61,374 bases of DNA from the IMG/VR virus record IMGVR_UViG_3300037484_000565, positions 1 through 61,374 of that record; one strand, 5' to 3'. Numbering within the stretch: the stretch's first letter is position 1; the number at the start of each line of letters is the position of its first letter. Positions 323-61,374 of the stretch are shown here, in pieces. Source of the DNA: a virus (taxonomy: Duplodnaviria; Caudoviricetes). The translations under genes were made by a program, and so were the position numbers. The notes below the pieces were generated by a model. It searched no databases. It saw only the letters and a list, made by a program, of their open reading frames with translations, and was not told the DNA's origin.

Positions 323-1588
323 CTATCCCCTCACGAGCTCAGCCTTTTGGCCTGTTCGGCGCTCCCAGCGTTCGATCGCGACATCGCAGAATTTCGGCTC
401 CAGTTCCATAGCAAAACATCGGCGGCCCAATTTCTCGGCGGCGATGATCTGGCTCCCCGAACCACTGAACGATTCAAGACAGACATCGCCGCGTTTGGTG
501 TGCTTGAGCAGCGGCAGTTCGAACAGCCGGACCGGTTTCTGCGTTGGATGAACTGAATCTACACAACGGGCCTTGCCCTCCCAGTCTACCTCCCACACGT
601 TGCTGTATTCTCCCTCGATAGTAATAACCAGCGGCTTATGACCTTCCTGCCATCCGACGAGGCAGGGTTCATAGCGCCAGTTCCACAGTGAGAAGCCCAA
701 GACAAACGTTGGTTTGATCCAGACGACGGTTTGATGATAGCGGATGCCAGTGCTTTCCCAGGCCCTGCGAAATGACTCAGCGGTGGCTGAGGCATGCCAG
801 GTGTACCAGGCCGCGTTGTTTTGCAGATATCGTTTGGCATTGACGAAAGCATCGGTCAGGAATTTTTCGAACTCCTCATGCCCAGAGAAATGGTCCCAAT
901 ACTCATGCGACCAGTCCTTGTTTTGGTCACCGGCGTGTCGGCCGCTTTGTTTGTCTCGGGCGTTCTGCGGATGGCTGGTCCCGTCGTAGCCGACGCCATA
1001 GGGTGGATCGGTGATGTAAATGGCCGCCCGTTGGCCGTCCATGAGCCGGTCTAAGGCAACCGGATCACGACAGTCTCCGCATAGCAGACGATGGTCACCG
1101 AGCAGCCAGAGATCGCCCAGCTGGGTGATTGGCTGGTCGGGCGGAGGCGGCACTTCATCCGCCTGGTCGTCACCGTCATCGTCAATGCCCCAATCGAGAA
1201 TGCGGGTCAGTTCCTTGTCATCGAAGCCCAGGGTCGAGAGATCGAAATCCACATCGAGATTCAGTTCGGCCACGATCTTGGCCAGCAACTCCTGATCCCA
1301 TTCTGCGATGCTTGCCGTCTGGTTGTCTGCAATGGCATACCCGGTGAACTTGGTGCCGATCAGGCCCGGCACGCGGATCACCGGCACCTCGGTCAGCCCG
1401 AGCTTCCGAGCCGCCTTCAACCGCGTGTGACCCGCAGCGATGTTCATGTCCGCGTCGCAGATGATCGGATTGTTAAAGCCGTACGCTTGGATCGACCGGG
1501 CTACAGCATCGACCGCTGCATCGTTCTGGCGGGGATTGGATGGATTTGTCTTGAGAGCAGAGGTCGGGATCTGTTCAACGGTCAGCAT
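323..1588 (-). CDS. ParB/Srx-like N-terminal domain fused to N6/N4 DNA methyltransferase
   Basis: NPRQN...AGHTRLKAARKLG ParB-like domain; TDPPY catalytic motif; HPTQKP; SFSGSGS SAM-binding motif. Confidence 0.92.
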   Translation of the reverse strand: MLTVEQIPTSALKTNPSNPRQNDAAVDAVARSIQAYGFNNPIICDADMNIAAGHTRLKAARKLGLTEVPVIRVPGLIGTKFTGYAIADNQTASIAEWDQELLAKIVAELNLDVDFDLSTLGFDDKELTRILDWGIDDDGDDQADEVPPPPDQPITQLGDLWLLGDHRLLCGDCRDPVALDRLMDGQRAAIYITDPPYGVGYDGTSHPQNARDKQSGRHAGDQNKDWSHEYWDHFSGHEEFEKFLTDAFVNAKRYLQNNAAWYTWHASATAESFRRAWESTGIRYHQTVVWIKPTFVLGFSLWNWRYEPCLVGWQEGHKPLVITIEGEYSNVWEVDWEGKARCVDSVHPTQKPVRLFELPLLKHTKRGDVCLESFSGSGSQIIAAEKLGRRCFAMELEPKFCDVAIERWERRTGQKAELVRG

Positions 1589-1698: not shown

Positions 1699-3267
1699 TC
1701 ACAACTCCTGCAGCGCTCGCGCGAAATCATCCTCGTTGTATCCCAGCGCTGTCAGTTTGTCGCAGAGCACTCCGAGATCCATCATTGTCGGGAAACCGTC
1801 CTGGTCGACGTCCTCGCCTGGCTGGGCAGGTCCGCCCATGTAAAGGCGCCGCGTGAGTTTCTTGAAGTCCTCCATGTCGATTACTCCGCTGCCGTCGACG
1901 TCGCCGATCAGTTGATCGAACCCCATGGTCACGTCGGCGTACGTGTCGAGCGGTCCGCCCTTGGCAGTCACTTCGATCACGATCTTCGTCCGGCTGCCGT
2001 CAGGCCAATCAGACGATGGCACGGTCAGCGGTCCGAATTTTCGATGCCAGACACTCTGGCTATTGACGACTTCGACGAATGGCCAGAAGTCTCCCGGGTC
2101 GACGCTGCCCAAGTTCTTCTCGAGTTCATACAGGCCGTCCGGTTGAATCATGGCGACCTGCGCCATGCGCGACGGATCGCGGCCCGGGTACCACTCGGAA
2201 TCGTTTCCTGTCATGTGGAGATTAACGCGATCGATCTTGACGCCACCGTACGGCACCTGGTCATCCTGTCCGAGCTTGGGACGGAATTCCACCAAGTAAT
2301 GCAGATCGGGATCTCCGGCCGCTGCCGGGAGCATGTATATCTCATTCGGAATGATGTGATGCGACGTGGGTGAACCGGTCACGAGAACCGGCGTCACGAA
2401 TCCCATCTGCACGCGCGAATGCGCACAGAAGCCGCAAGGACGATTCCCAAGCGTGCCGTTCCAACTGCCCGACGCCATCACGCACGCCTTGTCCTCACCT
2501 CGGCTGCTGCCATCCGTGTCATAGTGATCGGCGACGCCGAACGCATGGCCAATCTCGTGGCAGTGCACACCGATCGTCATGTCGCCAGGATTGCGCCAGT
2601 ACTCCGGCGCCGTGTAGTAGTCACTCACCGTCACGTTGCCGGTCACGAGCATGGGCGGCACGCCCCACTTGTGCGACCAGATATCGTTCGGATTGCCGGT
2701 CAGCTCGGCGCCGCTGCCGGCATGGATGATCCCGAGACCATCGACCAGGCCGTCACCGTTGTTGTCGTACTGGCGGAAGTCGATGCCGGCGGCCACGGCC
2801 TTCAGCACGGCATCGCGCGTCATTCCCTGGGCGTTGCGGGGATAGGAGCCGAAGCCGTAGTTCGCATTCACGTAGTAGGCGTAGGTCTGATCAAGGGTGA
2901 CAGGCACGATGTCACCAACCAGGCGCAGGGCATCCAGCGATTGTCCCAGGTAGTAATCGGCAACGGATTGCCGCGGGCCGTCGATGTCGAAGATCAACTC
3001 CTCGAATGTTGATAGGGCGGTCGCGATCTTCTTGTCCTTGAAGCTTACCGCGAGAATGAGGAACTGGAAATCACGCGGACCGGCAGGACTCCCGGCCGCA
3101 AGCGCCGGTCTCCGCAGATGCCCCTTCATGTCGAACTTGGACGGGGCATTCAATCCCGCTGTCTGGAGGATCCCACCGCGAGCCATCTTCGCCACTTTCC
3201 GCGCAAGCCCTTCCGAAAAGGGCGCATCGTCGTGCGGCGGCATCATGCAGAACTCTCGTCTCTCCAT
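1699..3267 (-). CDS. M6 family (immune inhibitor A-like) metalloprotease with C-terminal dockerin/EF-hand-like repeat
   Basis: YDNNGDGLVDGLGIIHAG, IWSHKW, HEIGHAFGVADHYD zinc motif, MASGSWNG; C-terminal GDVDGSGVIDMED...DVDQDGFPTMMDL. Confidence 0.9.
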   Translation of the reverse strand: MERREFCMMPPHDDAPFSEGLARKVAKMARGGILQTAGLNAPSKFDMKGHLRRPALAAGSPAGPRDFQFLILAVSFKDKKIATALSTFEELIFDIDGPRQSVADYYLGQSLDALRLVGDIVPVTLDQTYAYYVNANYGFGSYPRNAQGMTRDAVLKAVAAGIDFRQYDNNGDGLVDGLGIIHAGSGAELTGNPNDIWSHKWGVPPMLVTGNVTVSDYYTAPEYWRNPGDMTIGVHCHEIGHAFGVADHYDTDGSSRGEDKACVMASGSWNGTLGNRPCGFCAHSRVQMGFVTPVLVTGSPTSHHIIPNEIYMLPAAAGDPDLHYLVEFRPKLGQDDQVPYGGVKIDRVNLHMTGNDSEWYPGRDPSRMAQVAMIQPDGLYELEKNLGSVDPGDFWPFVEVVNSQSVWHRKFGPLTVPSSDWPDGSRTKIVIEVTAKGGPLDTYADVTMGFDQLIGDVDGSGVIDMEDFKKLTRRLYMGGPAQPGEDVDQDGFPTMMDLGVLCDKLTALGYNEDDFARALQEL

Positions 3268-26927: not shown

Positions 26928-27169
26928 CTGGCCCCCCTGACCGATGTGTCGCGATCATCGCGTTTTACCTGAATCATTCGCGGATCAGGCTCGATGGCAA
27001 TCATCCGGTCTTCGCAATTGACCATGAGCGTTCGATTCTCTGCGGCAACTGGCGTGATCCGGTCTTCCGCCATGACGACGACGGTCCGATCCAGCGGCAG
27101 AACAATCGGCGGCGGCACCGCGAAGGATGCCGCAAACCCCAAATTCATCAGCCAGCCGAGTGCCGCCAT
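26924..27169 (-). CDS. Hypothetical virion-associated protein
   Basis: Translationally coupled; repeated (D/N)R-x-hydrophobic-A/E units. Confidence 0.6.
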   Translation of the reverse strand: MAALGWLMNLGFAASFAVPPPIVLPLDRTVVVMAEDRITPVAAENRTLMVNCEDRMIAIEPDPRMIQVKRDDRDTSVRGAR

Positions 27170-30100
27170 TATTGCACCACCACGTATGTCAGATGCCCGG
27201 AGACCTGCACCGCCGCCGAGAGTTCCATGTTGAGCAATTCATTCGCGACGGTCTCGAAGTGCCCGACCGGCGAGAACGCGCATGAGACGCCGGAGTTCGT
27301 CGTCAGGGACATGACGCCAGTAAGCGCGGTCCCGCCTGCCGCAGATTCAAAGCGGACGTTCACCGCGCCCGCTGCGACGATCGTGTAGGAGAGCACTCGA
27401 ATCTTATTCGACGCACCGGCGGCCGCCACCAACGTGTTGTCACCGGAGGTCGCGCCGCTGATGATGACAAACACCGGCGTCACCGCTGTGAGTCCGTTCT
27501 GAATCTTGTCGGTCGCGAGTTTGGCAGTGATGCTGCTGGCCGTCGCGACAACTACCGGCATTGAGGTCACGTCCACGTCGCCGATATCCACGCCTGAGTT
27601 CGCCGCCAACTTGCCGATGGCATTCGCTCCGGTCGGGAGTGCACCAACGATGTCACACTGAAGTTCATTCCCACCAACCGCATTGTCGAGCAATTCGACG
27701 GACGTCTTAATCGCCGCAAGGGTCGTTTCGGTCGCAGCGCCGGTCGGGAGTGACACCGTACCGCTCACATTGGTCACATTCCACGTCCCGGATTGTGTCG
27801 CTGCTACTGTTCCGTCAACCGTGAGTGATGCGCCGTTGTCATCAACGGATAAAACGCCTGTGGAGTCAGTCGCAATCGTGACGCGTTGCGCCGTCGCTTC
27901 AGTTCCAGATCCGACTACCGATAGAGCAGCATTGTCAACCGTCAGCGATGATGCGCCATCGTCCACGCTGATGACATTCCCGCCGTCCTGGATGTTGACC
28001 GCGGCTGCGCCCGATGCATTATCGATGGTGACGTCGTGACTATTTGGAAGCTGCAGGGCAGCCGTCGCCGCGCCAGTCGGCAATGCCGAGGTCACAACGT
28101 CGACCTGCATTTCTGTTCCGCTGATGGCATTGTCGATCAGTTCGACGGCAGTCTTGATCGCCGAAGCCGACGCCTCGGTGCAGTTGAAATCCGCCGCTGT
28201 CGGTTGCACGACTTCGATGTCAGCGCCTTGGTGAATCTTCACGCGCTGGTATCCCTTTTCGTCGAAGTATGCGTTCACCCGGTCATTGTCGGCCACCGCT
28301 GCCGGTTCGGCGGTGCGTGCCTTGCCGCCGATCTTGACGGGCTTGTCTGACGAATCGGCGGCATCGTGGGCGATGTCACCTGCAACCGCCGCAACAACAT
28401 ACATCGGGGCAGATGGATCATAACCGATAGGCACGCCGCTCGATGGCTCGATCATGATTACTGCGAGTGCATCTAATCCCGCCGTGCCCAGGACGCTGAC
28501 CGGAGTTGTTCCATCCGTGAGCATTACAGGCATCGGCTTCGCTGCGCTCACAGGCGTAAGCGTGTCGGCAGCATCTTCCCACAAGACCGCGGTTCCGGTG
28601 ATCGACGCATCGGTGTCGCCCTCGGTATACTGCGTCCCGCCCCCGCCGCCCGACAAGACGTCAATCTGAAGGTGGCCATCGGAATCAGTCTTCAATGTCT
28701 GTGCGTTCGTACCGTCTTCACCGGCAACTTGAAGCGCAGTCGCGCCCTTGGCCGCGCCATCTGTCTTGACGGCGGCAGCGACCGACTCAACGGCTGTCTT
28801 GATTGTCCCTGAATTCGTTTCGGTGATCGCACCGGATGCTATGACGACCGATTCGCTATCGAGCGTGACTTTCACATCGGCGGTCTGTCCTGCGCCGCCG
28901 GTCACCGTCACCACGTCAGTCGATGTGAGATTGCGCACATCCAGATCGGTCGCGCTCACTGGCACAGCACTCTGATTGCTCGCGAGAACTACCGGCACAG
29001 ACGCCGCCATGAGGGCTTGCCCCTGGGCGGGAACCTTGCCATCGATCGAAGTGGTATCCCCGGCGATCGTCGCCGTATCCGTTTTCACGCCCGCGAGATT
29101 GCCGCCGGTTTCAAGGGCCAATGCCGATGTATTGAGATTCGTTCCGGCGTTTGCTGTTACCGTCCCGCTGATCGGCTGGGTGACGGCTGATCCGTCGACC
29201 GGCAACGGCTTCGCGGCGCTGACGGCGCGCAAGGTATCTGCCGCGTCTTCCCACAACATGGCCGTCCCGGTGATCGTTGCGTCAGTCTCGCCCTCAGTGT
29301 ATTGGGCGCCAGCCGAACCTCCGCTCACAATGTCCACCTGAACGTTGCCACTGGCATCGACCGCGATATTCCGCGCTACGGAACCGTCGTCGCCTTGGAT
29401 TAGCACACCCTTTGCGGGCAATGCGCCAGCGTCCGTCGCCTGCACGTCGTCGATCTTGGCGACCTCTGTGGCGATGGTCGCGAGATTCCCGCCAGCCTCA
29501 ACAGCGAGTGCCGATGTGTTGAGGTTGGTTCCAGCGTTGGCCGTTACCGTGCCCGATACCGTCACCGACCCTGTGACCGCGGTCGACGGCGCCGTGAGGA
29601 CATCAATCTGTAGATGGCCGTCCGAGTCCGTCTTGATCGTCTGCGCGTTTGTGCCGTCCTCGCCCGCAACCTGGACTGCCGTTGCGCTTTTGGTGGCACC
29701 ATCCGCCTTGACTGTCCCCGCGACGGATTCGACGGCTGTCTTTACAGCGGCCGAATTCGTCTCGGTAACAGTGCCGGATGCGACGGTGACGCTTCCACTC
29801 ACGGGTTGGGTCACCGCTGATCCATCAACTTTGAGCGCCGTCATGCTCGTGACGCCTTGCACGGTGATGACATCAGCCGACGGCGATCCCGCCGTTCCAA
29901 TCGCCGGTTGCTTCGCCGCAGTCGAAGCGCCAGTCGGCAACGCGCTGGATGCGACCGCGACCGCGCCAGTGTTGCAGGCCGTCACCTTCCCATTCAGCGT
30001 CGATAACGTCGCCTCTGTCGCGACCCCTCCGACCGTCCCGAGATTCGCAGTCACCGTTCCATCGACGGTGATCGAATTCCCGCCGTCTTGGATATTCACC

Positions 30101-30615
30101 GCTGCCGCGCCCGCCGCATTGTCGACCGTGACGTTGTGGCCGTCCGGGAGTTGCGCCGCCAACGTGGCCGCGCCGGTTGGCAACGGCAACGCCGCCGCAG
30201 ATACCGGCACAGCGCTCGCCCGAAGCTGTATATCGGTGAGCGGACCCGAAGCGGTCACCGTGCCAGAGATGGGCACTGCCGTCGCCCGCAATTGGGTGTC
30301 GGTTAATGGCCCGTCGACGGTCAGCGATCCGCCGTTGTCATCGACTGAGAGAACGCCGGTCGAATCGCTTGCAATCGTCACCCTCTGCGCGGTTGCCTCT
30401 GCGCCGCCTCCGACAACGGACAGCGTCGCATTGTCAACCGTGAGCGATCCGGCGGCATCGGATACCGGCAACGGATTCGCCGTCGATACCGGCGTCTGCG
30501 TACCGTCCGCGCCAAACTCGATCTTCACAAGCTGATGATGGATGGAACCGGCGGCCTCATCGGTCGCCAGCGTTGCACCACCAGACCCGGCGTTGAGTGT
30601 GATATTGTCAGCCAT
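27169..30615 (-). CDS. Large Ala/Thr/Gly/Val-rich repetitive fibre-like protein (probable head fibre)
   Basis: 1148 aa; several duplicated internal modules; located in head module. Confidence 0.7.
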   Translation of the reverse strand: MADNITLNAGSGGATLATDEAAGSIHHQLVKIEFGADGTQTPVSTANPLPVSDAAGSLTVDNATLSVVGGGAEATAQRVTIASDSTGVLSVDDNGGSLTVDGPLTDTQLRATAVPISGTVTASGPLTDIQLRASAVPVSAAALPLPTGAATLAAQLPDGHNVTVDNAAGAAAVNIQDGGNSITVDGTVTANLGTVGGVATEATLSTLNGKVTACNTGAVAVASSALPTGASTAAKQPAIGTAGSPSADVITVQGVTSMTALKVDGSAVTQPVSGSVTVASGTVTETNSAAVKTAVESVAGTVKADGATKSATAVQVAGEDGTNAQTIKTDSDGHLQIDVLTAPSTAVTGSVTVSGTVTANAGTNLNTSALAVEAGGNLATIATEVAKIDDVQATDAGALPAKGVLIQGDDGSVARNIAVDASGNVQVDIVSGGSAGAQYTEGETDATITGTAMLWEDAADTLRAVSAAKPLPVDGSAVTQPISGTVTANAGTNLNTSALALETGGNLAGVKTDTATIAGDTTSIDGKVPAQGQALMAASVPVVLASNQSAVPVSATDLDVRNLTSTDVVTVTGGAGQTADVKVTLDSESVVIASGAITETNSGTIKTAVESVAAAVKTDGAAKGATALQVAGEDGTNAQTLKTDSDGHLQIDVLSGGGGGTQYTEGDTDASITGTAVLWEDAADTLTPVSAAKPMPVMLTDGTTPVSVLGTAGLDALAVIMIEPSSGVPIGYDPSAPMYVVAAVAGDIAHDAADSSDKPVKIGGKARTAEPAAVADNDRVNAYFDEKGYQRVKIHQGADIEVVQPTAADFNCTEASASAIKTAVELIDNAISGTEMQVDVVTSALPTGAATAALQLPNSHDVTIDNASGAAAVNIQDGGNVISVDDGASSLTVDNAALSVVGSGTEATAQRVTIATDSTGVLSVDDNGASLTVDGTVAATQSGTWNVTNVSGTVSLPTGAATETTLAAIKTSVELLDNAVGGNELQCDIVGALPTGANAIGKLAANSGVDIGDVDVTSMPVVVATASSITAKLATDKIQNGLTAVTPVFVIISGATSGDNTLVAAAGASNKIRVLSYTIVAAGAVNVRFESAAGGTALTGVMSLTTNSGVSCAFSPVGHFETVANELLNMELSAAVQVSGHLTYVVVQ

Positions 30616-35518: not shown

Positions 35519-36934
35519 CTATGCCGCCGCTCCCCACACGCCCGCCCGCTTCAACGCGGTCAGGCAATGGAAACCACCACTCAGCGAGTCCGTCTGGTCG
35601 GAAACGCATTGATCGCTGCCGTCGAAATTCTCCAACTCGCGCAGCAAGTCTTCGTTCCAGGGACCCCGGAGAACCTTGACGTTGCCCGCCTCGCACTGAG
35701 CCGAGAGCGGTTTCGCGCGCATGCCCTTGGATTCGCGCACGGTATTCACGCCGGCATCGTAGCCCGCGAGATTGCGCACATGCACCGCAGCCTCGGCTTT
35801 GCCTGCCTGGCCGGGATCCTGCTCGAATCGAGCGCGGACTCTGTGGCCATCCTGCGATGCGACGTTCTTGATCCGCGATTCAACCTCGAGCGGAGAACCG
35901 TGGAAGCGAACGATGTCGAGGATGTAATACAGGCCCCTGGCTGACTTGCCGACCTTCGCGCCGGACGTGAACGAGGCCTTGCCGCGCTTCTCGGCGGTCT
36001 TCGCATCCGTCGCCGCGCGATCCCAGTAACGCACGACGTCGATCAATTCGGGCACCGCGTCGACGATCTCGAACCATGACCGCTGGAAGTACATGCCCGC
36101 GGTGTAGCGAATGTTCCAGTTCCCCTTGCGTAGGCGCTCGCGATCGACACGCGGGAGCGCATCGAGGTTCGCTCGATATTGCGGATCCTTGCGCATGAGC
36201 GCGGGATTGTCCTCGAGACGGCCCGGGATGAACGTGAAGGACTTCGGGAGACACTCTTCGCCGAACTGCGCTACGAGCTCCTCGGGAGAACCAGCCCAGG
36301 TCGTCGAATCGTTGCGTGTGTAGAACCACCGGATTATCCCAGAGCGTTCCTCGATCGGATATCCACTCGCATCGTCGATCCACCAGGACATGAACGATCG
36401 CAGCCAATGATCGGGATCCGGATTGCAGGTCGCGCGGACGTAGGGCACAACGCCGCACGTTGTGCGATTGCGGGAGAGCATGTACCAGAACTGCCGCCAG
36501 GTGAATGACTCGAGCTGGTCAAAACCGATCAGCGGAATCTGAGAGCCATCCCAATTCAGATAATCGTGCTCGCCCTCCATGTGCGCGAAACGGATCCGGG
36601 ATCCAGAGGGGAACTTCCACTCGAGCGTTGATTCCTTGGGGATGGCGCCGCAGGGGCGGTAGAGTCCGAACGAGGTATCCCACAGCCCGCCCTCCTGGCG
36701 GATCTGCGGTGAAGTCCTGCGGAAGATGACGGTGCCGAATCCGGGATTGTCGACATGCCGCAAGGCCTCCATGAGCAACCCGAAGCTCTTGCCGGCGCCG
36801 GCCGCGCCGCCGTACACCGCGATATCCGCCGAGGTATGCAGGAATTGCTCCTGTGGCCCCGCCTGCGGCCGCACGTCGATCAAGTCGACTGTCGGTCTCA
36901 TCGGTGGCGGTGCTGTGGCGATCATCGGGATCAT
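35519..36934 (-). CDS. terL: Terminase large subunit
   Basis: Walker A YGGAAGAGKS, IGFDQL, ATCNPD; nuclease RYWDRAAT, EQDPGQAGK, DQTDSLSG. Confidence 0.95.
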   Translation of the reverse strand: MIPMIATAPPPMRPTVDLIDVRPQAGPQEQFLHTSADIAVYGGAAGAGKSFGLLMEALRHVDNPGFGTVIFRRTSPQIRQEGGLWDTSFGLYRPCGAIPKESTLEWKFPSGSRIRFAHMEGEHDYLNWDGSQIPLIGFDQLESFTWRQFWYMLSRNRTTCGVVPYVRATCNPDPDHWLRSFMSWWIDDASGYPIEERSGIIRWFYTRNDSTTWAGSPEELVAQFGEECLPKSFTFIPGRLEDNPALMRKDPQYRANLDALPRVDRERLRKGNWNIRYTAGMYFQRSWFEIVDAVPELIDVVRYWDRAATDAKTAEKRGKASFTSGAKVGKSARGLYYILDIVRFHGSPLEVESRIKNVASQDGHRVRARFEQDPGQAGKAEAAVHVRNLAGYDAGVNTVRESKGMRAKPLSAQCEAGNVKVLRGPWNEDLLRELENFDGSDQCVSDQTDSLSGGFHCLTALKRAGVWGAAA

Positions 36935-36956
36935 CGTGTTTTCGGTTTGTCCCTTT

Positions 36957-37061
36957 CGCGAAAAGGGTCTCCGCCAACTCTTCCTGCTGGGTAGCAGAAG
37001 AGGGCGAAGACCCCAGACTTTCGCGATGCTCACACCGGTAGCGAACCGGCGGCTTGTCAGG
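36957..37061 (-). ncRNA. Conserved structured RNA element, copy C (upstream of terL)
   Basis: CUGACAAGCCGCCGG..CCGGUGUGAGC then GCGAAAGUCUGGGGUCU...AGACCCUUUUCGC. Confidence 0.7.
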
Positions 37062-37072
37062 CCATGGTTAGG

Positions 37073-37312
37073 TCATAAAACTATCGCTCCGCGTTTTAGC
37101 GAATACGTCGGCCACTGCCACCATTCGGACGTTTGCCAAGCGGTCTCGAAATCTGCTGTCAATCCTGTTTGCATGGTTGGCATCAGCACGCATCGTAAGT
37201 TTGGCACAAGGGACATGAGGAGTTCGTCGGTTGCGAGTTTGGTTCTTCGACGTAAATCTCTTAGGTGCGCGTCGATCTCGGTCCAGGGATCGCGGTCGTC
37301 AGGGTTTTTCAT
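37073..37312 (-). CDS. Hypothetical protein
   Basis: ATGA-coupled to terS. Confidence 0.5.
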   Translation of the reverse strand: MKNPDDRDPWTEIDAHLRDLRRRTKLATDELLMSLVPNLRCVLMPTMQTGLTADFETAWQTSEWWQWPTYSLKRGAIVL

Positions 37313-37812
37313 GGCGTCCTTGCCTCCACTGGCGCCGCCGGAATATCCTCTTGCGGCTTGCGACCGTTGTCGGGAAGATAGATTCGCACTTCCGCCCTGG
37401 ACGCGATGGGGCCCCCGCCTGGACCCGACAACTCGTGCGCGTACCGATCGCGGTACTTGTCCGGGAAGGCACCCTTGAGCAGGAAGATGCGCGAGGTCCA
37501 GGAGATTTTCCTGACCACGACCGGCTGCCCCTCTTTGTCGAGCACGAGCTCGCCCTTGACATACAGCGGCTCGGGCGTGCCTAGGAGGGCATCGTCAAGA
37601 GACACATCTTCGAGGATGTGGGCGCCGATGAGCTTCGCCTCATCGAGCTGCGCCGCAAAGGATTCGCTGGCGTGTTTGTGGGCGTAGACAGAGGCGTGCG
37701 TCACGTTGAGATTGCGGCAAACCTCACGAATATTCCCGCCGCAGTCCATCAGGCGCTGCAGAAACTTGATCTCGAAATCCTCGGTCCATCGTACGCAGGT
37801 TCCGTTGGCCAT
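37309..37812 (-). CDS. terS: Terminase small subunit
   Basis: FLQRL..GGNIREVC HTH, FLLKGAFPDKYRDR, ELSGPGGGPI, VRIYLPDNGR; upstream of terL. Confidence 0.85.
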   Translation of the reverse strand: MANGTCVRWTEDFEIKFLQRLMDCGGNIREVCRNLNVTHASVYAHKHASESFAAQLDEAKLIGAHILEDVSLDDALLGTPEPLYVKGELVLDKEGQPVVVRKISWTSRIFLLKGAFPDKYRDRYAHELSGPGGGPIASRAEVRIYLPDNGRKPQEDIPAAPVEARTP

Positions 37813-38635
37813 AATCTGCCTCCGCCGGATGTGTGTACTAATCAATCGAGTTCGTCAATCTCTTTCGGAGACTTTTTTACGAAAGTGAATCCTCGAAGGC
37901 CTTGATGGTCGGATTCTCGCGGCGTTCGTGAGCCATGATATTGCGGATTCTAGCGACGGATATCGAGTAACCCATGGCGAAGAGTAGGTCTGATAGCAAA
38001 CCGGTCCCGCCGCCATGATACCTCTTGTGCGGTATGGACTTAGTCAAGGCGACGGCGGCCATGGCGATCAGCTCGTCACGCTTGGAAATGTCTTCGGTCA
38101 GAGTGCCCCCAACTGACTGATCACGAAAAGAAACTCACTTTCCCAGACGCGTTGATTTCCGCACCGCATCCGATGCAAAATGGCCGCCCCTCCCCCTCCC
38201 AGTTGAATAGCAAATAGCCTCCGCACCGTGGGCAAGGACATCCGACTGTCATGTTCGGTTCTCGATAGGGGCGGTGTACGGCTGTTGTAGACAGCGAGAA
38301 GTATGCCCTGGGCAGTGCCTGCATACTTCGACAATGGCGAAGGAGTTCGGTTACGCATGGCACACAGAAGTGACCATCGAGGGCTTTGAATGGGAGCAGC
38401 TTTATGCTGGGTGCCATGGCGACGAAGAAGCCGCGGCTGTAGGAGTGCATCCTCTCTCCACACGCGAGCTCCTGGCTGTCGTAGCCGCGATCCCGATCAA
38501 CAAGTGCATGGATAGTACCATACTCGACGGGTCCATTCTCGTGGCGATAGTATGAAACCCACAGCCACACCACGCGCTCCGATTGGATTGTTTTTGGCAT
38601 CGCCAGGGATATTCCGATTCGAACATGCTTAGGGA

Positions 38636-54228: not shown

Positions 54229-54301
54229 TGCGGGTGACAGGATTCGAACCTGCGGCCTCCCGGTCCCAAGCCGGGTGCTCTGCCAACTGAGCTACACCCA
54301 C
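54229..54301 (-). tRNA. tRNA-Pro(TGG)
   Basis: Cloverleaf: GTGGGTG/CACCCGC, CCCGG-CTTGGGA-CCGGG, GGTTCGAATCC; no encoded CCA. Confidence 0.88.
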
Positions 54302-54305
54302 GAAA

Positions 54306-54379
54306 GGCCGGTGGAGGGAATCGAACCCCCGATCTGCTGATTACGAGGCAGCTGCTCTGCCAACATGAGCTACACCGGC
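54306..54379 (-). tRNA. tRNA-Thr(CGT)
   Basis: Cloverleaf: GCCGGTG/CACCGGC, anticodon loop CTCGTAA, GGTTCGATTCC; no encoded CCA. Confidence 0.85.
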
Positions 54380-58430: not shown

Positions 58431-59564
58431 TTGCCGGTTTCCTCCACGCCGATCGTTAAGCGTTTCATCGGTAGTTACGATGGAGACGGGCGTTTCGCCA
58501 TCACAATTATCATGTCTCCTGCAAAACAGAAATGGCGTTCCCTGTCGAAGCACTTCAACCGGCGGATTCGCGCGGAGAAAGATGCGGAGAATGCGCTGAA
58601 GATCTGGATCGCCGAGACCGGCATCGCCAACGCGACTCTCCAGTGGCACAACGGCAGCCCGTGCGCTGTCTACCAGGATTGGTCGGGCCCGTCGCAATCA
58701 ATCGCCAGCTTCATCGATCAATACCTCGAGGCGCAGTTCGATCGCGTCACATCTGAAACGCATCGCCATATTCAGACCTACTTAGGGCACTTCCTAAATT
58801 TCGCCGCGGCTGAGGGATTCCGGCGCCTCTCGGACATTCGCCGGCGAGACCTTGAGCGGTACGTCAGTACGGCGCCTGGCAACCCCCGCACCAAGCGTCA
58901 CTATCTCAACGCGGTCCGCGCGGCGCTCAACACGGCGCTGCGCTGGGAGCTCATCGAGTACAATCCCGCGGTCGCCATCCCGGTCCCGGTAGATCGGCAC
59001 ACGCGCGCGCGACGCTGCCTCAGCGACGTGGAGATCCGGACTATCACCGGGAGTTGGCCATCACCCGAGCGCGAGTTCGCCCTGATCGGCATTTGGGCGG
59101 GTTTACGGCTGGGCGAGATTCGGCACCTGGCCTGGGATGACATCAATCTGCAGGATGGCAGTCTCCTGGTCACAGCCAAACCGGAGTTCGCCTTCTCACC
59201 GAAAGGGACGCGGTACCGCGACGGGAGCCCGGACACGGTCCTCCTGGTCCCCTGGCTCATCGATCTCCTATCCGACCTCCCGCGCATTGGTCGGTTCGTT
59301 TTCGATCGCGGCGACGATCGACCGCTCTGGTCGGCCTGGACCTGGGAGAAACGCGTCGCCAGAGCCGCCCAGGGGGCCGCCATGGTGCATGTGAGCCCGC
59401 ATGTGTTCCGGCACACCTACTGCACCAAACTCGCGCTGGCGGGGATTAATCGGGCTTTGTGGCCCCAATTGGCGCGCCACCTCGACGCGCAGACCACGGA
59501 CCAATACGTCCACGCCACGATGGAGGACGCACGCCGGGAGCTGGGTAAGCTCCAGCCCGTCTAA
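58431..59564 (+). CDS. int: Tyrosine integrase
   Basis: GLRLGE (R), PHVFRH (HxxR), ARH, TDQY (Y); start uncertain. Confidence 0.92.
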   Translation: MPVSSTPIVKRFIGSYDGDGRFAITIIMSPAKQKWRSLSKHFNRRIRAEKDAENALKIWIAETGIANATLQWHNGSPCAVYQDWSGPSQSIASFIDQYLEAQFDRVTSETHRHIQTYLGHFLNFAAAEGFRRLSDIRRRDLERYVSTAPGNPRTKRHYLNAVRAALNTALRWELIEYNPAVAIPVPVDRHTRARRCLSDVEIRTITGSWPSPEREFALIGIWAGLRLGEIRHLAWDDINLQDGSLLVTAKPEFAFSPKGTRYRDGSPDTVLLVPWLIDLLSDLPRIGRFVFDRGDDRPLWSAWTWEKRVARAAQGAAMVHVSPHVFRHTYCTKLALAGINRALWPQLARHLDAQTTDQYVHATMEDARRELGKLQPV

Positions 59565-59785
59565 GAAATCGCTAAGAGGGCGTGAATTCTCGTGACCCGC
59601 TCTGCTCTGTAGTGACGTTTCCGCCGGAACCGGAATTCTCCTCGTACAAACGTCTGTAAATCGCTAAGTCCTTGTCATTTAAGCGGGATTTTTCAAATGG
59701 AGAGGGGAGGATTCGAACCACCACGCGCACCCGTAACGTGTTTCACGTGAAACACTTAAAAATCACGTCTAAGGGGCCGCTAAGA
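59558..59785. other. attP-like site: tRNA 3'-end core (59698-59719) flanked by arm-type direct repeats
   Basis: Minus strand GGTTCGAATCCTCCCCTCTCCA; CGTCTAAG-N4-CGCTAAGA at 59558 and 59766. Confidence 0.75.
59739..59754. promoter_or_regulatory. parS: parS consensus palindrome
   Basis: TGTTTCACGTGAAACA, 16/16 match to the canonical chromosomal parS. Confidence 0.65.
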
Positions 59786-59934
59786 AAGAGCCACATTATA
59801 AGGCGAAAAGTGCACGACACGGCGTGTCGTAAATCACGACATCCCATGTCGTCGCTGTCCGGGCCGAGACCGGTACGTCGGATGTGCCTTTTGGTACGTC
59901 CGATGTACCACTCTCCCGCTCACGGGCATCCACC

Positions 59935-60127
59935 GATTTGTCCCATTTCGGGACAACTTGTCCCATCTTCGTCCCGTTTTCGGGACAAATCGCCAAACCA
60001 GCGATGTTCCACTGGAGGCACAGGTGTACCTGTAGCGGAACACCCCACCCACGGTCTCTCCATGCTCCCCCGCGTTCCACCTCCGGAGGCCTGGACAAAC
60101 TCTGTCCATTTTGGACAAGGCCTGTCC
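59935..60127. repeat. Cluster of TGTCC/GGACA inverted repeats
   Basis: TTGTCCCATTTCGGGACAA, GTCCCGTTTTCGGGAC, TGTCCATTTTGGACA and flanking half-sites. Confidence 0.6.
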
Positions 60128-60230
60128 AGAAGATTCTTAAGATTCTGTCTCTGAATGACTTGACTTCCGTCTCAGAAGATCGATGTAGTGTCATGGTCAA
60201 GATACAACCCTTGGCCAGAGAGGACTTAAG

Positions 60231-60875
60231 ATGAAACTCAAACTCACCCCCAACCCCGGAACGGGAAGCCCGGTGATCGTGAAAATCGGGCGCCGCAAGG
60301 CAAAACCGCTGGATGAACTGGCGAAGGAACACGGCCTTATCGGCCAGGAACCTCAGGTCGATGTGGCCGGGGAAATGCTGGACGGCTGGATCACCGAGGA
60401 GGAAACTCGCCTTGGGACGCTGGATCTGGATGCCCTGATCGCCGAGCATCAGCGCTCCACCGGTCGGAAGACGCGATCGGTCAACCGGAAAGTCATCACC
60501 GCCGGGATCCTCAAGCATCTCCGCGAGCAGGCCCGTCCGGATCCGGAGAAGCCCGAGGCCGCCAAGTCGCGTAAACAGCCGAAGCCTGCGAAGCGCCAGG
60601 TCACGGTCCCAGAGGAAGCGAATGCGGCGCCCAATGTCGCGCCCAAGGAGCCTATGCGCGCGCGCGATCCCCGGATCCCTGCGGTCGGATTGATGATCGA
60701 GCGCCTTTACAAGGGCAAGACGCTCCTGGTCATGGTCCTCGATGATGGCTTCGAGTACGAGGGCAAGCCGTACCGCTCACTTTCGGCCCTGGCCCAAGCC
60801 ATCACCGGCGCCAAGGCGATCAATGGTCACCTGTTCTTTCGGCTTGGGAAGTATGCAAAGACGCAGACGGTCTGA
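60231..60875 (+). CDS. DUF2924-like protein
   Basis: RDPRIP..G..IERLYKG..V.V..DGFEYEGK.YRSLSA.A..ITG...NG..FF.L; GAGAGG RBS. Confidence 0.8.
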   Translation: MKLKLTPNPGTGSPVIVKIGRRKAKPLDELAKEHGLIGQEPQVDVAGEMLDGWITEEETRLGTLDLDALIAEHQRSTGRKTRSVNRKVITAGILKHLREQARPDPEKPEAAKSRKQPKPAKRQVTVPEEANAAPNVAPKEPMRARDPRIPAVGLMIERLYKGKTLLVMVLDDGFEYEGKPYRSLSALAQAITGAKAINGHLFFRLGKYAKTQTV

Positions 60876-60976: not shown

Positions 60977-61374
60977 TTATTCTTCCTCGGCATCCGTCTT
61001 GCTGTACCCAGCCCGGCCATTATCCGGCAGGTAGATTCGAACACCGGTGTCCGCGCGGACGCCCTGGCCGGGCTTTGAGCCGTCCAACCCGATCAGATGT
61101 TCTTCGAGGCGGATGAGCCGATCGAGATCCGCCAACCGAGGCTTGACATCGCCGTTGACGATTGCCTTGGCCAGCCGCGTCAGCGCGGCCCGGACGATCT
61201 TCAGATTGCGCGCAGAGAGGTCGACCTGGTCGGCCAGATGCTTGTCGGCGAGCTGACGGGCGACCTCAGCGCGCCGCTCTTCAATCCGGCGCATCCAGCC
61301 GAACGATCGGCCCCAGAGTTTGATCGTGTCGAGATCGAGGCCAGCCTCTTGAGCTAGGAGACTATAGGTGCGGC
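60977..61374 (-). CDS. Second terminase small subunit-like protein, C-terminal part
   Basis: DLDRLIRLEEHLIG..GVRIYLPDNGR; joins the ORF starting at 306 (about 156 aa in total). Confidence 0.7.
   Translation of the reverse strand, partial: RTYSLLAQEAGLDLDTIKLWGRSFGWMRRIEERRAEVARQLADKHLADQVDLSARNLKIVRAALTRLAKAIVNGDVKPRLADLDRLIRLEEHLIGLDGSKPGQGVRADTGVRIYLPDNGRAGYSKTDAEEE

Follow-up and report, generated by a model that had tools for sequence, protein, structure and literature searches.

The 61,374-nucleotide (nt) window analyzed here is an entire IMG/VR virus record (IMGVR_UViG_3300037484_000565; Duplodnaviria, Caudoviricetes), classed as linear and ~90% complete. It represents a temperate phage that has its own small and large terminase subunits (TerS1 and TerL) together with structural genes, and at the ends of the record it carries a further gene of the small-terminase kind, here called TerS2. 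TerS2 combines an unlike DNA-binding head with the same C-terminal peptide as TerS1 and is, on balance, probably a working, TerL-docking alternative small terminase with a DNA specificity of its own, carried on a mobile cassette behind a DNA methyltransferase gene fused to a ParB_N domain (ParB-methylase). Nearly all genes of the window lie on the minus strand, in the order early/replication block, TerS1 (37845 to 37309), TerL (37033 to 35519), head and tail genes, M6-type peptidase, ParB-methylase and N-terminal part of TerS2. Genes were called by a script as greedy longest open reading frames (ORFs), which in this GC-rich DNA include spurious frames.

The TerS2 ORF (60977-61372, minus strand) ends in ...DTGVRIYLPDNGRAGYSKTDAEEE, and the TerS1 ORF (37309-37845, minus strand) ends in ...SRAEVRIYLPDNGRKPQEDIPAAPVEARTP. 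TerS1 matched phrog_4044 and phrog_309 (E-values of 4.7e-13 and 1.9e-8), and its probable start at 37812 agrees with a 167-amino-acid (aa) database form. The decapeptide VRIYLPDNGR is common to both proteins (61042-61013 in TerS2, 37389-37360 in TerS1), with eight of its ten codons different and only CGA and ATC shared. A sequence-only reading of the window had pointed to this identity, which was borne out; recent gene conversion as its source was ruled out, since eight of the ten codons differ. The dissimilarity of the N-terminal heads, noticed in the same reading, was upheld as well. BLASTP aligned TerS1 and TerS2 in the tail region only (15/23 identities), and profile-profile comparison of the two families returned a probability of 11.5% that was confined to the helix-turn-helix (HTH), so the heads are not demonstrably related. 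That reading had also cautioned that similar tails occur in many TerS proteins, and this caveat proved to be the key to the whole case: the 10-mer shared by TerS1 and TerS2 is not due to chance, yet it is not specific to the pair either, being a widespread TerS tail.

How widespread was assessed by scanning IMG/VR with back-translated IYLPDNGR, which returned at least 115 stretches (chance expectation ~10, by rough estimate), including 113 in-frame matches. Among the matches listed, 105 of the 113 were C-termini of small proteins with a window-like TerL no more than 2.5 kb downstream; the remaining eight comprised four without such a TerL, two in large fiber-like proteins and two too near a contig end. 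Tail and window TerL clade accordingly co-occurred in 105 of the 109 assessable small proteins among these matches. Within the first 80 of the loci listed, all 59 downstream ORFs of at least 380 aa matched the window TerL at 42-58% identity, and the regions upstream of the tail in 69 small proteins fell into 12 groups that could not be linked by BLAST. The TerS2 head matched none of these 12 head groups (best E-value 0.003). The nearest cultured phage by TerL (50.8% identity), Rhizobium phage RHph_TM3_3_3 (MN988468), has a DUF2280-type TerS that ends in ...FQLPDNGRG and precedes TerL, which indicates that the tail goes with the TerL clade. Because of the IMG/VR matches and RHph_TM3_3_3, IYLPDNGR is taken, on sequence grounds, to be a hallmark of TerS proteins working with window-type TerL, whatever their DNA-binding head. 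A full-text search of open-access literature did not find 'LPDNGR'. In two viral contigs (L104 and L117) IYLPDNGR was seen inside a large repeat-rich, fiber-like protein of more than 1271 aa, probably by coincidence.

Both small-terminase families of the window contain members with other tails. For the TerS1 family (1588 representatives at E ≤ 1e-3), regular expressions detected the tail in 11 (strict) to 23 (loose) of 155 relatives, with somewhat more variants recognizable by eye. The TerS2 family search gave 31 database proteins and 73 loci (L-numbers), with P0002-P0005 as the closest proteins. Conservation in this family covers the head and a helix with DLDRLIRLE at its end, beyond which at least five tail classes can be told apart. 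Of 90 distinct complete C-termini, 10 were LPDNG-like and the majority of a PDSR...ELR type, counts that come from crude regular expressions in which many rows scored as 'other' belong by eye to the PDSR...ELR class. The VRIYLPDNGR-type tail was restricted to the nearest relatives of TerS2; P0002-P0005, at 48-75% identity to TerS2, have kept the motif while the linker preceding it varies. Conversely, five of five loci with another TerL type (cluster F10, Pfam Terminase_6C) carried the PDSR...ELR tail, and the window TerL matched no TerL in the TerS2-family loci, F10 included; the tail class therefore follows the TerL clade from both directions. The tail class of TerS2 itself is the one suited to the TerL encoded in the same genome, although its family mostly carries other tails. 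Taken together, sequence comparisons within the two families show that tails have been swapped in both, with the motif linked near-exclusively to the window TerL clade.

The window TerL (35519-37033, minus strand; probable start 36934) matched Pfam Terminase_6N (2e-26) and Terminase_6C (3.9e-10) as well as phrog_979 (3.1e-153). A complex of this TerL (471 aa; alignment of 44 clade members) and the C-terminal 42 residues of TerS2 (54 tails aligned) was modeled and scored 0.69, compared with 0.02 for the best of three controls; 58 of 80 solved complexes attained the score mark applied, as did 2 of 110 mismatched pairs. Model runs agreed in at least 68% of contacts. The pLDDT (per-residue confidence) of the tail partner was at least 47, which makes the tail's own fold uncertain. 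In the modeled interface, tail residues 21-34 (GVRIYLPDNGRAGY), with the predicted docking motif VRIYLPDNGR encoded at 61013-61042 in TerS2 (and at 37360-37389 in TerS1, both minus strand), faced TerL residues 19-23, 29, 32-35, 55-60, 91, 94-96 and 161-165. These contact residues belong to the N-terminal ATPase region, where P23, Q24, G26, Q28, F31 and L32 are nearly invariant columns of the clade alignment; the segment of residues 19-60 in the 471-aa form, which is predicted to contact the tail, is encoded at 36755-36880 (minus strand). According to a 2026 review, TerL N-termini are bound by TerS C-termini, and maps of the holoenzyme (P22) are of low resolution only (PMC13595956). As the window TerL has no sequence relative in the PDB and holoenzyme maps are limited to low resolution, the score is unlikely to reflect recall of a solved complex. 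The docking prediction applies to TerS1 and TerS2 alike, since both tails share the motif. The model thus agrees with the role in TerL contact that had been suggested for the tail, and the shared tail is very probably a TerL-docking element.

TerS2 is divided between the two ends of the record. Its C-terminal 131 codons plus stop (60977-61374, minus strand; 61372 to 60977 for the codons) encode the end of the HTH, long helices and a flexible tail, and were assigned by a match to phrog_6299 'terminase small subunit' (8.1e-4) and by the family alignment. The N-terminal 102 codons (306 to 1, minus strand) encode the HTH head and first long helix and matched the same PHROG at 3.4e-11. The two parts come from slightly different, partly overlapping copies: the ends of the window overlap over 233 nt at 92% identity (1-233 versus 61142-61374), and exactly only over the last 127 nt. 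An exact overlap of 127 nt is the length typical of a k=127 assembly graph. The copies, both present in the sample, may be paralogues, or a mixed population may have contributed two strain alleles of a circular genome. They differ at 11 silent and 5 replacement codons, which indicates purifying selection on TerS2. The ORF spanning the junction, as it had been described from sequence, is one that we infer, because the record ends overlap imperfectly. The protein of ~156 aa is nevertheless real, given that P0002 (75% identity) and P0003 (69%) are full-length relatives of 154-157 aa with the start in common.

The proposal that this second ORF is of the TerS kind was likewise strengthened. Beyond the phrog_6299 matches, a distant TerS2 relative (L003) overlaps the start of a downstream phrog_2 TerL, and an F10 TerL stands directly after a TerS2 relative in L018 and one gene further on in L035 and L043. 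The AlphaFold 2 model of P0002 (mean pLDDT 72.8) has helices at residues 10-21, 28-35 and 39-48, forming a putative HTH, then at 51-97 (a long helix of 47 residues) and 104-119, followed by a disordered tail. The nearest named Atlas clusters to TerS2 were Terminase_5 and Phage_terminase, a lead only. These results support the assignment of TerS2 as an intact protein of the small-terminase family. Close TerS2 relatives in IMG/VR were found neither with P0003 as query nor with an exact 30-mer, in searches from which the window's own record may have been left out.

The ParB-methylase gene (323-1588, minus strand), which encodes a ParB_N-fused N6/N4 DNA methyltransferase (Pfam ParB_N and N6_N4_Mtase; phrog_498 at 3.3e-123), lies 16 nt upstream of TerS2. 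On the other side a DUF2924 gene (60231-60875, plus strand; Pfam DUF2924 at 5e-21) converges with TerS2, and the tyrosine integrase gene of the phage is found at 58431-59564 (plus strand; Phage_integrase at 2.2e-13). When 81 crude window ORFs were compared with the loci related to TerS2, four matched, namely the two TerS2 parts, the ParB-methylase and one weak unrelated match. Copies of the ParB-methylase at 46-51% identity precede TerS2 relatives in seven loci. A targeted search aligned the C-terminus of the DUF2924 protein to L014 (72.9% identity over 70 aa), in which an element of like make-up has its DUF2924 gene beside a serine integrase. The window and the 73 related loci share nothing beyond the ParB-methylase, TerS2 and a portion of DUF2924. 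Among the upstream neighbors of TerS2 relatives (n=41), ParB_N was present in 18 and N6_N4_Mtase in 4, and stop and start codons often overlap at the ParB-TerS step. ParB-methylase and TerS2 are shown to form a two-gene mobile cassette, which in the window occupies an accessory region beside the integration module. The attP site is presumed to lie in the gap at 59565-60230, where GC content is lower than in the genome (0.527 versus 0.592). A distance of about 1.3 kb from TerS2 to the attachment site had been given in the sequence-only reading and could not be upheld: no att site was located in this record, which comes without host flank and in which ARAGORN placed tRNAs at 54229-54379 only. 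The lateral transduction or GTA-like transfer from a pac site near att that the same reading proposed is neither backed nor contradicted by these data.

The related loci have a recurrent layout, with a serine integrase on the opposite strand (plus DUF2924 in L014), sigma factor, D5-type primase or DnaB, Dam methylase, ParB and TerS, after which come host-like or unrelated genes or a XerC/D-like gene. The elements concerned measure ~8 kb between putative borders, are without capsid or terminase genes (e.g., L012, L014, L016 and L017) and occur in metagenome-assembled genomes (MAGs) of the uncultured Fibrobacteres-Chlorobi-Bacteroidetes (FCB) group; as judged from gene content, their layout resembles that of a phage satellite. 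ORFs directly downstream of TerS2 relatives are not conserved (19 singletons of 36), and no terminase was present among the 25 Pfam families listed, of 38, for these 36 ORFs. Recurrent downstream ORFs of 358-438 aa were tried as a hidden TerL and ruled out, having no PHROG or Pfam match and mostly not clustering together. No convincing att repeats were found around two of the small elements; serine integrases need only very short cores, which makes the missing repeats weak evidence. Some elements end in two or three tandem TerS copies that differ in tail. In three loci (L016, 6865-8402; L031, 73-1803; L032, 1966-3735) three tandem TerS2-family genes with three different tails are located at the edge of an integrated element, one of the three tails being LPDNG-like in L031 and L032, and serine recombinase fragments adjoin the tandem genes in L032. 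L014 and L016 are from the same MAG (G001), which therefore holds two ParB-methylase-TerS elements, each no more than 6-7 kb from a XerC/D-like tyrosine recombinase (cluster F11). On Eisenbacteria MAG contigs (L021, 8000-15400; L023, 2800-14500), four to six ORFs of ~100 aa, whose similarity to the TerS2 family is confined to its coiled coil, are interspersed with ORFs of ~500 aa on the opposite strand.

A ParB gene in front of a small terminase gene is also found where terL follows. Among four MAGs searched, a Terminase_6C TerL was present in G004 only; its contig G004:C304 has the order ParB-methylase, TerS, TerL, and the tail of that TerS is unlike the L019 tail. Of 91 tail-bearing TerS genes, 36 have a ParB-like ORF no more than 1.8 kb upstream. 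ParB-TerS-TerL is therefore a common canonical order. TerS1 of the window has no ParB gene upstream.

To see how often a second tail-bearing protein occurs, 25 whole records of the window TerL clade, many of them incomplete, were scanned for LPDNGR-coding sites; one of these (G005) was included knowingly and the other 24 blind. Two sites were found in two of the 25 records, G005 and G016. In G005 a canonical TerS-TerL pair stands at one end, and a 192-aa orphan tail-bearing protein is encoded ~52 kb away (L085, 247-7203), translationally coupled to a ParB_N gene. The order in that cluster, which is DNA-modification-like, is a ParB_N plus HTH_ParB protein (668 aa), a SAM (S-adenosylmethionine) methyltransferase, a PAPS (3'-phosphoadenosine-5'-phosphosulfate)-reductase-like protein, ParB_N and the tail-bearing protein. 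Both tail-bearing proteins of G005 read GIVIYLPDNGR and differ in 2 of 11 codons, so recent gene conversion is possible there. G016 (L159, 1253-4462) has two tandem Terminase_2 TerS genes, both LPDNGR-tailed, directly before one TerL, and RHph_TM3_3_3 has a single TerS-tail site in its genome. The two variable residues before IYLPDNGR match within the genome in both the window and G005 (chance ~0.14 per genome), which is a weak hint of within-genome matching of tail residues.

Following this evidence, TerS2 would consist of a DNA-binding HTH head, long helices such as those from which TerS rings are assembled, possibly in a ring of its own, and a flexible tail whose peptide (hydrophobic-x-IYLPDNGR) has its predicted docking site in the N-terminal ATPase region of TerL. 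Binding of TerS2 to the resident TerL, alongside TerS1 or in competition with it, is most likely, because its tail carries the peptide found in the TerS of this TerL clade and is predicted to dock. By bringing TerL to DNA recognized by its own unrelated head, at what would be a second recognition site, TerS2 would act as an alternative packaging-specificity subunit, and the packaging motor may in this way be directed to another DNA target.

Several observations weigh against a working alternative small terminase. Binding to TerL is predicted, the score of 0.69 being a model confidence obtained from our own alignments with a tail of uncertain fold. A full-length TerS2 gene depends on the imperfect overlap of the record ends. 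PHROGs was the one source of curated-family support because Pfam returned no match to TerS2; Foldseek comparison with the PDB gave no match at E ≤ 0.001 (best E-value 0.46, to generic HTH and homeodomain folds) and placed G20C TerS (4xvn) only at rank 37, and a TerS2-family profile searched against PDB sequences gave chance-level rows only. As the sequence-only reading had observed, terL does not come directly after TerS2, where the convergent DUF2924 gene and the tyrosine integrase are found instead; TerS2 is ~24 kb from terL, behind tail and accessory genes. Promoter and terminator scans around the cassette were at or below shuffle expectation, and no recognition site was assigned. Second copies are uncommon, with two LPDNGR sites in 1 of the 24 records scanned blind. 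Lastly, the frequency of the ParB-TerS-TerL order (36/91) leaves room for a displaced module head.

The arrangement could also be read as a satellite-derived module of hijack or interference, in which the ParB-methylase-TerS set (with or without DUF2924) would form the end of a small integrative element that parasitizes phages by supplying a TerS of its own, the window holding a captured or degenerate copy that diverts TerL to foreign DNA or serves the cassette. The mechanism would be the same as for an alternative subunit of the phage, with a different beneficiary, and we regard this as unlikely, if worth serious attention. A parasitic cassette had been offered as an alternative from sequence, and it has gained from the comparison with related loci: what the window shares with those 73 loci is confined to the cassette and part of DUF2924, the typical context of the relatives is a serine integrase (with or without DUF2924), primase, ParB and TerS in small integrated elements without terminase, the genes beyond TerS are not conserved and gave no terminase among the Pfam families listed, and three loci have tandem, differently tailed TerS genes. 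A precedent is provided by Staphylococcus aureus pathogenicity islands (SaPIs), which use their own TerS with the TerL of a helper (PMC5052747). Nonetheless, the window is a 61-kb phage with TerS-TerL and structural genes rather than a small island, it has no element-type serine integrase or primase, and its cassette has a GC content like that of the genome. The borders of the small elements are themselves inferred, att repeats were not found around the two inspected, and their relation to a helper is putative, drawn by analogy. An improbable alternative is that TerS2 is a relic, the displaced or duplicated head of a ParB-TerS-TerL module that lost terL and is decaying with no role of its own. 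Homologs followed by their own terL, named beforehand as a sign of such a relic, do exist (L003, L018, L035 and L043), as do ParB-like genes immediately before 36 of the 91 TerS genes with the tail and the complete order in G004:C304. A mere relic is, however, hard to reconcile with an open TerS2 frame, with the excess of silent over replacement codon differences (11 to 5), with a tail conserved in relatives at 48-75% identity next to a linker that is not, with a tail type that fits the resident TerL clade although the family mostly has others, and with recurrence of the same arrangement in the unrelated phage G005.

Two further explanations assign TerS2 a different function. It might be an adaptor that tethers the ParB-methylase, or other modification enzymes encoded upstream, to TerL or the packaging start, so that DNA is modified while packaged and TerS1 stays the pac-recognition subunit. 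In the window the TerS-like gene is last in a methylase/ParB set, in the family at large the genes run Dam methylase, ParB, TerS, with stop codons overlapping the start codons that follow, and the G005 cluster places its tail-bearing protein after ParB and methyltransferase genes. All of this is gene neighborhood, and canonical TerS genes also follow ParB genes, for which reason the neighborhood may just reflect operon order; we consider an adaptor distinctly improbable. Lower still is the likelihood that TerS2 is a regulator of transcription or recombination with a TerS-like HTH head, its tail being shared by coincidence or through recombination without function. The gene does lie beside the integration module, it has no Pfam family, and the structures it resembles most are HTH and homeodomain folds of a generic kind (E-value 0.46 or worse), but among the matches listed 105 of 109 assessable tail-bearing small proteins precede the window TerL clade, the N-terminal part of TerS2 matched phrog_6299 and the complex model favors binding to TerL. 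Against these alternatives, a TerL-docking small terminase with its own DNA specificity is the reading that we favor.

Other features of the window stand apart from this question. The M6-type metallopeptidase gene (1699-3267, minus strand; Peptidase_M6 at 7.8e-19) borders the cassette, with the tail genes on one side and the methylase on the other, and looks like an accessory gene; its product is immune inhibitor A-like, with weak dockerin/EF-hand-like matches at the C-terminus. A 79-aa ORF (37073-37312) occupies the 275 nt that separate TerS1 from TerL. A minus-strand ORF of 1148 aa (27169-30615), presumably a tail fiber or similar, contains diverged internal direct repeats (27771-28105 versus 29915-30460, 63-74% identity). 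The tRNA-Pro(TGG) and tRNA-Thr(CGT) genes adjoin at 54229-54379 on the minus strand in the early region.

Compared with known systems, TerS2 resembles canonical pac-type TerS proteins (P22 gp3, SPP1/SF6 G1P and G20C TerS), as the 2026 review describes them, in its HTH head, helical oligomerization region and C-terminal tail for TerL binding (PMC13595956), all three being predicted for TerS2. Unlike these, it is encoded ~24 kb from terL in a genome that already has a TerS beside TerL, and it has neither a Pfam family nor a significant match to a solved structure. Its ParB-fused methylase immediately upstream recalls the head of the ParB-methylase-TerS-TerL module (G004:C304; ParB_N proteins in the 36/91 loci), whereas no terL follows the window pair and the TerS next to terL has no ParB upstream. 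The RHph_TM3_3_3 TerS shares the kind of tail on a head of an unrelated family (DUF2280). Like the TerS of SaPIs and other phage-inducible chromosomal islands (PICIs), TerS2 relatives end small elements that have an integrase and primase and no TerL; in contrast to those islands, TerS2 itself lies inside a complete phage, and the related elements, putative satellites at most, use a serine integrase with DUF2924 and ParB(-methylase) in FCB-group MAGs. SaPIs are not known to have tandem TerS copies with different tails, although no search was aimed at this point. What is already known is the principle of a second TerS that has its own DNA specificity and borrows the TerL of another element, the helper, as in SaPIs (PMC5052747). 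A literature search on second or two small terminases gave, among the matches listed, none on a phage with two terS genes. Three things appear to be new: a portable plug, IYLPDNGR, that belongs to a single TerL clade; the presence in a complete phage of two TerS with unrelated heads and a common plug; and small elements whose tandem TerS genes differ in tail.

More speculatively, ParB-TerS pairs could be portable packaging-specificity cassettes whose C-terminal peptides serve as exchangeable plugs for different TerL clades. The small FCB-group elements with one to three tandem TerS genes of different tails would then be a new kind of satellite that addresses several helper terminases, and the window phage would have captured a cassette whose plug fits its motor, so that two DNA addresses would be available to one TerL. 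We put this forward tentatively, as a proposal that is more doubtful than the function assigned to TerS2 itself. TerS-TerL docking is still structurally unresolved, and a portable peptide found across at least 12 head groups, together with a confidently predicted contact on conserved N-terminal TerL residues, amounts to a directly testable docking rule; if true, the contact between motif and TerL N-terminus would be a first residue-level handle on TerS-TerL docking. A phage whose two TerS share a plug but have unrelated heads would amount to a natural experiment on how a packaging motor can be re-addressed, with relevance to transduction, satellite piracy and the engineering of packaging specificity. 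Through the small elements that carry TerS genes in tandem, the satellite concept could reach into poorly known phyla.

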